Shown piece by piece: positions 21,742 to 22,108 of a stretch of DNA of 64,000 nt. Each line of letters starts with the position of its first letter. Within the stretch, counting starts at the first letter, position 1. The stretch lies in the IMG/VR virus record IMGVR_UViG_2893071988_000005, positions 14,497 through 78,496 of that record, one strand, 5' to 3'. Source of the stretch: a virus. Taxonomy: Duplodnaviria > Caudoviricetes. Position numbers and translations under genes: made by a program. Under the pieces are notes generated by a model that saw only the letters and a program-made list of their open reading frames with translations, made no database searches and was not told the DNA's origin.

Positions 21742-21770
21742 TTGACATCGGAGTACTTTTCGAACACCCT
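21742..21770 (+). promoter_or_regulatory. Sigma70-like promoter for the CRISPR-repeat-like RNA cassette
   Basis: TTGACA-17 nt-CACCCT; predicted start about 21777, where the first hairpin begins. Confidence 0.55.
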
Positions 21771-21798
21771 CAATTGGTCAGCGCATGGAGTTGGCGAT

Positions 21799-22037
21799 GT
21801 CGTGGTGGTCCTGCCCACTTCGTTGGATTGAAACCCTCTAAGTGGCGGTCAAGAGATTGGCTGTTACCAAAGACCAGTCGGCGCCTGGGGCCGGCGATGT
21901 CGCGATGGCCTTGCCTGTCGTGTTGGATTGAAACTCTTTAAGTGACGGTATGGAGCTTCCTACCCGTTGCGAGAAGTTAGCCGGCGCATCGGGCCGGCGG
22001 TGTCGCAGCGGCCGCGCCTGCTGTGTTGGATTGAAAC
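21799..22037 (+). CRISPR. Three degenerate 36-nt CRISPR-like repeats (GTCG...GTTGGATTGAAAC); mini-array or RNA anti-CRISPR cassette
   Basis: Repeats at 21799-21834, 21899-21934, 22002-22037 with covarying 8-bp stems; no cas operon in window. Confidence 0.7.
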
Positions 22038-22075
22038 TCTCTTATTGGTGTTTACCGGCTTTTGCCGCAACGCGG

Positions 22076-22108
22076 AGCGGCTACCTCAACGGGTAGCCGC
22101 TTTCGTTT
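22076..22108 (+). terminator. Intrinsic terminator closing the repeat cassette
   Basis: AGCGGCTACC-TCAACG-GGTAGCCGCT-TTCGTTT. Confidence 0.7.

Follow-up and report, generated by a model that had tools for sequence, protein, structure and literature searches.

A three-unit cassette between two minus-strand genes of a provirus

The DNA analysed here, referred to as the window, is a stretch of 64,000 nt from the caudoviricete record IMGVR_UViG_2893071988_000005 of IMG/VR. The record is a provirus of 78,496 bp and 62% G+C, the completeness of which CheckV estimates at 92%, and the window corresponds to its bases 14497-78496. In a 425-nt gap between two minus-strand genes, one for a protein of 90 amino acids (aa) and one for a DUF3150 protein, the window carries a cassette of three tandem units on the + strand. 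Each unit contains a module that resembles the repeat of type I-C CRISPR arrays. An earlier reading of the letters alone (the original prediction) had pointed to this cassette as a candidate RNA anti-CRISPR or mini-array.

A repeat search returned one repeat family, with three copies of 82 nt at 21777-21858, 21877-21958 (73%), and 21980-22061 (67%). The 36-nt units that had been predicted within these copies were located on the + strand at the predicted periods of 100 and 103 nt (Table 1). The spacings rule out a repeated peptide, as three divides neither of them. The layout of every unit is the same: hairpin A is followed by the 36-nt module, consisting of GUCG, the 8-bp hairpin B, and the invariant UUGGAUUGAAAC, and then by hairpin C. 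Between B and C runs a single strand of 19 nt, composed of UUGGAUUGAAAC and YCUYUWA, which contains GGA. The intervals between the repeat-like modules are 64-67 nt long, and the three units together lie within 260 nt.

The 12-mer TTGGATTGAAAC is present three times in the 64-kb window, always on the + strand and always inside a unit, where 0.14 copies would be expected; three or more copies were obtained in 0 of 100 shuffles of the window. Across the whole 78,496-bp record, GGATTGAAAC has four copies, the fourth of which falls in apparent coding sequence.

Table 1. Positions of the cassette parts and of the flanking features in the window
Feature	Position	Strand	Remarks
Candidate promoter	21742..21770	+	TTGACA 21742-21747, 17-nt spacer, weak -10 CACCCT 21765-21770; predicted from sequence only
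Unit 1 hairpin A (6-bp stem, 7-nt loop)	21777..21795	+	repeat search, pairing count, RNAalifold
Unit 1 type I-C repeat-like module, 36 nt	21799..21834	+	GU, helix B, extra U, handle
Unit 1 helix B	21801-21822	+	one U-U mismatch
Unit 1 handle UGGAUUGAAAC	ends 21834	+	extra U between helix B and handle
Unit 1 hairpin C	21842..21867	+	begins 7 nt past handle
Unit 2 hairpin A	21877..21895	+	
Unit 2 repeat-like module	21899..21934	+	helix B 21901-21922, handle 21923-21934
Unit 2 hairpin C	21942..21970	+	
Unit 3 hairpin A	21980..21998	+	
Unit 3 repeat-like module	22002..22037	+	helix B 22004-22025, handle 22026-22037
Unit 3 hairpin C	22045..22073	+	
Terminator-like hairpin	22074..22110	+	GC core 22077-22100, tail TTTCGTTTCC
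90-aa protein gene, upstream neighbour	22086..22358	-	without family or solved relative
DUF3150 protein gene (302 aa), downstream neighbour	20752..21660	-	
Intrinsic terminator	21699..21720	-	between cassette and DUF3150 gene start; sole call of the terminator scan there

Compensated stems and an invariant handle

The stems of the cassette covary, as had been predicted. Of the 42 cells that make up helices A (6 bp) and B (8 bp), 41 pair, and 4 of the 14 pairs have changed on both sides; the sole unpaired cell is the U-U mismatch in helix B of unit 1. When the pairing partners were slid by 1-3 columns as a control, 28.6-73.8% of the cells paired. The second hairpin said to precede each 36-nt unit, hairpin A, was found again by RNAalifold on full-length units, as was hairpin B. 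The claim that the G-U pairs are valid on the + strand also held: G-U cells number nine and A-C cells zero (one-sided binomial 0.002), and because of this imbalance the minus strand pairs in only 32 of the 42 cells. RNAalifold added hairpin C, which had not been described before and which is paired in 19 of 21 cells with two pairs changed on both sides. The pairing favours the + strand, and in this direction the modules have the same GTCGC-to-GAAAC orientation as I-C arrays. The folding z-score of unit 3 taken together with the terminator-like hairpin was -4.74.

Conservation among the three units is concentrated in the handle. All 12 of its columns are invariant, compared with 36 of 70 elsewhere (12/19, 4/5, 9/22, and 11/24 for the separate parts). 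The last of these figures belongs to the interval starts directly after the handle, which thus show no conservation above background, although their first 15 bases are alike across the units. The original prediction had taken similar interval starts as a sign of duplication; both the likeness and the duplication of whole units stood, with 11/24 columns invariant there against 12/12 in the handle. We conclude that the intervals derive from whole-unit duplication.

The predicted transcription start lies near 21777, which is 7 nt past CACCCT and is the first base of unit 1. Downstream, the terminator-like hairpin overlaps the last codons of the minus-strand 90-aa gene. The TTGACA promoter and the intrinsic terminator of the original prediction survived in part: the -35 hexamer is there, but it is followed by a poor -10 and the promoter scan made no call of a sigma-70-like site, and a GC-rich hairpin with a T-rich tail is there, but the terminator scan did not call it. 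In contigs from sequencing runs of other studies, one from soil (X2) and one from wastewater (X11), we observed 0 differences over the stretches of the cassette that they cover; X5 and X15 did not reach the cassette.

The handle is that of type I-C repeats in the host order

The RlmB encoded in the bacterial flank of the provirus shares 97% identity with a protein cluster bearing the name Shinella granuli, and a genome of a Shinella-like host genus (G807) matches this flank at 99% over 3188 of 3201 bases and lacks the cassette. The match to G807 stops near base 3188 of the 3201-base query, a mark of the attachment site. We surveyed motifs in 401 Hyphomicrobiales genomes and used 30 genomes as the host-genus set.

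The 11-mer TGGATTGAAAC was far commoner than its reversed control and was present in 245 of the 401 genomes. The idea that it is a dispersed repeat was rejected, as its large counts came from true arrays and all nine fetched places in G146 share one context; most of the other fetched places read as W-I-E-T codons, judged from the flanks only. In G146:C1 there are about 22 copies of a repeated element, probably an insertion sequence (nine copies were fetched, L271-L279), whose coding sequence holds TGGATTGAAAC and so inflates the motif count.

Arrays with a period of 64-69 nt, implying spacers of about 33-37 nt, were found in five Hyphomicrobiales genomes, all of which carry Cas8c (PF09709); its distance from the array is no more than a few kb in G007, G026, and G383. 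The likeness to type I-C repeats that had been proposed was borne out, since the repeats of Cas8c-linked arrays in the host order and genus start with GTCGC and end with TGGATTGAAAC. All ten distinct repeats taken from Cas8c-bearing genomes of the host order or genus consist of GTCGC, a 7-bp stem, and a short loop, with TGGATTGAAAC following directly. In the phage modules, GTCG(C/T) goes with a stem of 8 bp and a loop of 6 nt, and an additional U stands before the same TGGATTGAAAC. The handle is identical in all three units and in the Cas8c-linked arrays of G007, G026, G186, G261, G383, and G817.

According to the parts of PMC8524198 used here, a type I-C repeat has a 7-bp stem with a pentaloop, set between overhangs of 2 nt and 11 nt, and Cas5c reads mainly the cleavage site and the downstream handle rather than the loop or the 5' overhang. 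A CRISPR RNA (crRNA) 5' handle had indeed been recognised in the original prediction, although its length was given as 8 nt and the type I-C handle in that source has 11. Measured against a canonical repeat, the phage modules keep the GU overhang, but their stem has 8 bp (7 in unit 1), their loop has 6 nt, and all three carry the extra U. In our reading the units are repeat mimics and not canonical repeats.

Two covariance-type comparisons were made, one with a model of the three phage units only (R1) and one with a model of 14 natural 32-nt repeats (R2). Against R1 the phage units themselves score 99-102 bits. When R1 was run on 85 metagenome and viral loci, 27 matches reached E<=0.01 (19.4-26.7 bits); these are natural I-C array repeats, and in the alignments helix B falls on the natural repeat stem (with deletions) while the handle is in register. 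Conversely, the three units were the top three of nine window matches to R2, at E of about 0.02.

Compared as a whole with a type I-C array of Hyphomicrobiales, the cassette shares the GUCG(C) start, the stem-loop, the 11-nt handle, and the direction of reading. It differs in its period of 100 and 103 nt instead of 64-69 nt, in its G-U-rich 8-bp stem, 6-nt loop, and extra U, and in having no leader, no cas genes, and no unique spacers.

Type I-C systems are present in the host genus itself. Cas8c was found in 6 of the 30 host-genus genomes, and one host-genus array has 88 handle copies of GTCGCCTCCTTCGCGGAGGCGTGGATTGAAAC. The array of G800, also of the host genus (L301:3341-6789, minus strand), has 44 repeats, mostly with the handle variant ATCGAAAC / GGATCGAAAC. 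In its trailing part, two repeats end in GGATTGAAAC with a spacer of only 24 nt between them. In G807, a remnant (L555:2308-2930; G807:C10 ~415,800-416,430) holds a truncated Cas3-HD open reading frame (ORF; PF18019, E 1.4e-06) leading straight on to a partial repeat, after which come a single spacer of 33 nt and one full repeat. As read from its sequence, this remnant is a recently decayed type I-C locus. Together with the Cas8c-linked arrays of the genus, it indicates that type I-C immunity is present and turning over in the host lineage.

Searches for Cas partners, targets, and relatives

As a less likely alternative, the original prediction had considered use of the cassette by a RAMP protein of the prophage. 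This was not upheld, since the record gave no match to RAMP (PF03787) or Cas5 (PF09704) at E<=1, and no Cas family was found among the 30 window ORFs scanned against Pfam. Any Cas partner must therefore come from the host.

The suggestion that the intervals serve as guides found no backing either: no protospacer and no target with a protospacer-adjacent motif (PAM) plus seed emerged from searches of phages, plasmids, genus genomes, and I-C loci. The cassette had 0 matches in 50,697 phage records, and in 72,556 plasmid records and the 30 genus genomes it gave only weak matches to GC-rich hairpins. Conversely, 131 spacers taken from I-C arrays had no near-full-length match to the phage, and 0 matches of at least 25 nt in 160 related loci. 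A search of 14 type I-C loci (198,938 bases) for TTC plus the first nine post-handle bases, with at most one mismatch, gave two sites, at each of which TTC is accompanied by 8 of the 9 seed bases of interval 2; chance alone would give about two. Both lie in genera other than that of the host, in the genomes G383 and G186, and they were rejected as targets, being at chance level and having fewer than nine PAM-proximal pairs. Neither a cas-promoter target nor a PAM-seed target was found in the seven host-genus I-C loci, including the G807 remnant.

The two rejected sites, in type I-C loci that are unrelated, share a 27-nt non-coding element (L293:2500-2526 in G383, L295:2175-2201 in G186) made up of TTCTCTTTAA, 12 variable bases, and CTCAT. 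On its other strand the element reads as a mini-ORF of six codons starting ATG AGG or ATG AGA, and the G383 copy lies between cas3 and cas5c. The motif had one further match in the 401 genomes, inside an ORF of 327 aa, with no CRISPR repeat in the 2.4 kb fetched. The likeness between the two copies may be due to chance, or I-C loci may have a small associated element of this kind.

No relative of the cassette was recovered. Rfam, searched with 3 kb at E<=10, gave no credible family, the best matches (U12 and SorY) being far below thresholds. Homologues of the DUF3150 protein (45-57% identity) are found in many Hyphomicrobiales proviruses, and the gene is kept in all 160 related loci, while the cassette, its motif, and the neighbouring small genes are in none of them; gaps at the same position in the 11 relatives with long gaps held no tandem units. 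The retention of DUF3150 where the cassette is absent marks the region as an accessory insert of this phage lineage. Among 77 viral loci with GTTGGATTGAAACNCT, a number close to that expected by chance, there was no relative. BLAST found none in the 30 genus genomes, where R1 gave two weak matches lacking the handle. Two handles 75-105 nt apart occur in at least 117 metagenome stretches; among the matches listed, loci with this spacing (8 viral and 80 metagenome) held no relative, and 130 instances of the two-handle pattern proved to be arrays or unrelated tandem repeats.

An IMG/VR scan for GCGTGGATTGAAAC, covering 80 loci among the matches listed, showed 64 loci with a single match, 14 of which have a solitary repeat-like unit, while the other 16 loci have mini-arrays or arrays. 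Several of the solitary I-C units, in L314, L329, L361, L373, and other IMG/VR loci, stand directly ahead of a ribosome-binding site and ATG, a position that resembles the 5' leader of a gene.

A pair of handle-bearing sequences, GTTGGATTGAAAAC and GTTGGATTGAAAC, lies 36 nt apart on L075, a 16-kb IMG/VR contig of a high-GC phage (7870-7965, minus strand). The pair is in the gap between two divergent helix-turn-helix (HTH)-like genes, and ahead of its first copy stand GTCGC and a short hairpin. What follows the second handle (CCCTCTTGGCGG) is similar to the post-handle bases of unit 1, and R1 scored only 16.9 bits (E 0.06). The L075 pair may thus represent another diverged mimic of I-C repeats, in which an extra T likewise comes before the handle.

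Genomic setting of the cassette

The minus-strand block around the cassette codes for an ATP-dependent ligase, a MoxR-like AAA ATPase, a DUF2201 protein of the von Willebrand factor A (VWA)/metallopeptidase kind, a sliding clamp (DnaN), a ParB-like protein, and an HTH protein. With this content of ligase, ATPase, clamp, and ParB-like genes, the block reads as a replication and early module. The small proteins encoded beside the cassette have 0 relatives in Pfam, PHROG, and PDB. The strong minus-strand terminator at the DUF3150 side of the cassette lies only ~38 nt upstream of the DUF3150 start codon; as there is no room for a promoter after it, expression of the DUF3150 gene would depend on read-through or antitermination.

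Bacterial DNA makes up about 3.3 kb at the left of the record, with tRNA-Thr, a LysR regulator, a flavodoxin-like protein, RlmB, tRNA-Tyr, and tRNA-Gly, and the provirus is integrated beside tRNA-Gly (G000:C1:1-4564, L299). The first phage-side ORF after tRNA-Gly, of 397 aa and on the minus strand, is without a Pfam match. The large terminase (window 35789-37849) is closest to that of Microcystis phage Mae-JY30 (46.6%) and of the plasmid-prophage Vibrio phage VP882 (38.6%). The DUF3150 protein has a 32% match to three 65-kb phage records listed under cyanobacterial hosts.

Relation to known phage-borne repeat mimics

Solitary repeat units (SRUs) of phages act as RNA anti-CRISPRs (Racr), as reported in the sections of PMC10651486 (Camara-Wilpert et al. 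2023) considered here; RacrIF1 gives an aberrant complex of Cas6f and Cas7f, and RacrIC1 is an inhibitor of a type I-C system. Like a Racr, the cassette is intergenic on a (pro)phage that has no cas genes, would mimic the repeat of a subtype that some genomes of the host group carry, and lies just downstream of a promoter-like hexamer. It differs in having three tandem copies instead of one solitary unit, in the addition of hairpins A and C and of the extra U, in being only 67-78% identical to natural repeats, and in having no recognisable acr gene next to it. The same sections state that SRUFinder needs at least 90% identity and coverage and drops repeats with look-alikes within 100 bp. With its low identity and its look-alikes nearby, the cassette would be filtered out.

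The second known kind is the crRNA-like regulatory RNA (Cracr). In the portion of bioRxiv 10.1101/2024.10.29.618823 (Liu et al.) used here, 219 viral Cracr candidates are described, and 30 arrays that include nine two-spacer I-C arrays; a candidate has at least nine PAM-proximal pairs with host CreA/CreR spacers, and the viral psi-spacers are mostly 17-21 nt long. Parts of PMC10120712 (Shmakov et al.) describe prophage mini-arrays in which the spacer-proximal repeat bases are conserved, as are the stem-loops though not the sequences of their stems, and in which the spacer seeds are similar; viral mini-arrays that target other viruses are also known from this source. The cassette is likewise multi-unit and array-like, with invariant spacer-proximal repeat bases, stem-loops of varied sequence, and similar interval starts. 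It departs from a Cracr in that no CreA/CreR-like or cas-promoter target was found for it, in that its units are whole-unit duplicates, and in its structured intervals of 64-67 nt as opposed to the 17-21 nt given for psi-spacers in that portion of the preprint. The cassette thus falls outside the operational definitions of both published finders (SRU and Cracr). Given the published Racr and Cracr examples and the units from our IMG/VR scan, phage-borne mimics of I-C repeats are already a known kind.

A possible multi-copy RNA decoy and its alternatives

We tentatively favour the reading that the cassette is a three-copy, Racr-like RNA decoy for the Cas5c and Cascade of a host type I-C system, and we consider this quite possible. 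It draws on the frozen handle, the hairpins compensated on the + strand, the duplication of whole units, the hairpin inside each would-be spacer, the lack of cas genes in the phage, and the type I-C systems of the host genus. In particular, whole-unit duplication together with a conserved hairpin in the interval fits selection for the copy number of a mimic, not for different guides.

Such a decoy would be a + strand non-coding RNA of ~330 nt made of three tandem units of ~100 nt. Each unit would mimic the I-C repeat of the host group through its GU, its stem-loop, and the 11-nt 5' handle UGGAUUGAAAC. Host Cas5c, recognising the base of the stem and the handle, would bind each unit, and Cas7 and Cas8c might join it. 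The extra U between stem and handle and the start of hairpin C 7 nt past the handle could hinder cleavage or growth of the Cas7 filament. Caught in unproductive complexes, the Cas proteins would no longer be available to genuine crRNAs.

A bolder version, which we regard as doubtful, is that the cassette, as a 'clamped' mimic of crRNA in several copies, represents an RNA anti-CRISPR class with a new architecture. Here the Cas5c-binding handle would be kept invariant, its shift by one U could slow or block cleavage, the hairpin 7 nt downstream could act as a roadblock to growth of the Cas7 filament, a further hairpin would stand upstream, and a single transcript would trap three sets of Cascade subunits. 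Since divergent tandem mimics escape finders based on identity, they could be much commoner than catalogues suggest.

Several observations weigh against a decoy. Neither a + strand promoter nor a + strand terminator was called by the scans, so that we only infer transcription of the + strand; the one run labelled 'RNA' that holds the cassette is flagged as probably DNA, and its contigs carry no information on strand or ends. The best identities of the units to 44 distinct natural or viral I-C repeats are 67%, 72%, and 78%, below the median of 81% for pairs of natural I-C repeats, and the R2 alignment to the units covers the handle only and skips the hairpin. On the side of structure, 25 of 500 column shuffles reached the observed pairing values and, as no relative of the cassette was found, the covariation rests on three paralogous copies with statistics that are only moderate. 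The folding z-scores of units 1 and 2 (-0.13 and -0.72) were not significant, and the whole + strand cassette scored -1.89, compared with -2.86 for a slightly longer minus-strand stretch. Family searches of the neighbouring ORFs found no recognisable acr gene near the cassette. Finally, neither Cas8c nor Cas1 was found in the G807 genome, so that the lysogen itself may lack a working I-C system.

The main rival is a regulatory, Cracr-type array, whose processed RNAs would load into the I-C Cascade of the host and repress a host promoter without cleavage, through partial pairing of the bases past the handle; the target could be, for example, the promoter of the cas operon or of a CRISPR-guarded toxin. 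Viral arrays of this kind exist, among them the nine two-spacer type I-C arrays in the part of bioRxiv 10.1101/2024.10.29.618823 cited above, and the conservation pattern that the excerpted text of PMC10120712 gives for mini-arrays is the one seen in the cassette, down to the likeness of the first 15 post-handle bases in the three units. We nevertheless hold this rival to be unlikely. The only two PAM-seed sites in the 14 I-C loci are at chance level, lie in other genera, and fall short of nine PAM-proximal pairs; the seven host-genus loci, with the G807 remnant among them, have none; and the motif shared by G383 and G186 recurred in the 401 genomes only within the 327-aa ORF. The post-handle columns are conserved at background (11/24 invariant) and run into a conserved hairpin from 7 nt past the handle, and intervals of 64-67 nt do not resemble psi-spacers of 17-21 nt, the length given in that part of the preprint. 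A genuine mini-CRISPR array, used with host Cascade and with the intervals as spacers against competing phages or plasmids, would account for the alternation of repeat-like modules with intervals, and viral mini-arrays against other viruses have been described (PMC10120712, in the parts used). It is nonetheless the least probable of the explanations, to the point of being highly improbable, in view of the missing matches in 50,697 phage records, the mere noise in 72,556 plasmid records and the 30 genus genomes, and the intervals themselves, which are related to one another by duplication and fold into a conserved hairpin. As the original prediction had noted, they are also too long for normal spacers, which in the natural arrays measure about 33-37 nt.

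Two further explanations were considered. The cassette could encode a structured phage RNA unrelated to CRISPR, such as a cis-antisense regulator of the minus-strand early operon, or a sponge or scaffold for another RNA-binding protein, whose match to the handle is coincidental. Its transcript would be fully complementary to the intercistronic transcript between the two flanking genes, if that transcript exists, each unit has three hairpins around a 19-nt single strand with GGA, and the lack of an Rfam match speaks for neither side. Hairpins around a GGA-bearing single strand are a layout that occurs among protein-sponge RNAs. A sponge for CsrA was rejected, as CsrA (PF02599) was found in 0 of the 30 host-genus genomes. 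We judge a CRISPR-unrelated RNA to be quite unlikely, because it leaves to coincidence an 11/11 handle match at the right distance past a GUCG hairpin, three times over, in a phage whose host genus has such repeats; moreover, simple antisense pairing needs neither tandem units nor compensatory changes in stems. The other explanation is an element acting at the level of DNA, for example spaced sites for the phage ParB-like protein or a replication protein, or a functionless, decaying relic. The position in a replication and partition module with ParB-like, DnaN, ligase, and DUF3150 genes would suit protein-binding sites, as would an invariant 12-mer at ~100-bp spacing and the phage contig L075 with two copies of the 12-mer in a regulatory intergenic region. 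A protein site, however, leaves unexplained the three compensated hairpins and the 9:0 excess of G-U over A-C cells on one strand, and in a relic the handle would not have stayed invariant in 12 of 12 columns when half of the columns elsewhere have changed; this explanation seems to us very unlikely.

Implications

Earlier screens for RNA anti-CRISPRs sought near-identical, solitary copies of host repeats; diverged, tandem mimics that keep the structure but freeze no more than the Cas-binding handle, such as those proposed here, would be missed. Should the cassette prove inhibitory to type I-C systems, alphaproteobacterial phages of soil and wastewater would join those with RNA-based counter-defence, and the cassette would offer a natural experiment on which features of the repeat serve binding by Cas5c and Cascade and which serve cleavage. 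It could also be a pointer to compact RNA inhibitors, in multiple copies, for use with type I-C tools. If it is not inhibitory, the cassette would still be a well-defined orphan structured RNA of a temperate phage.

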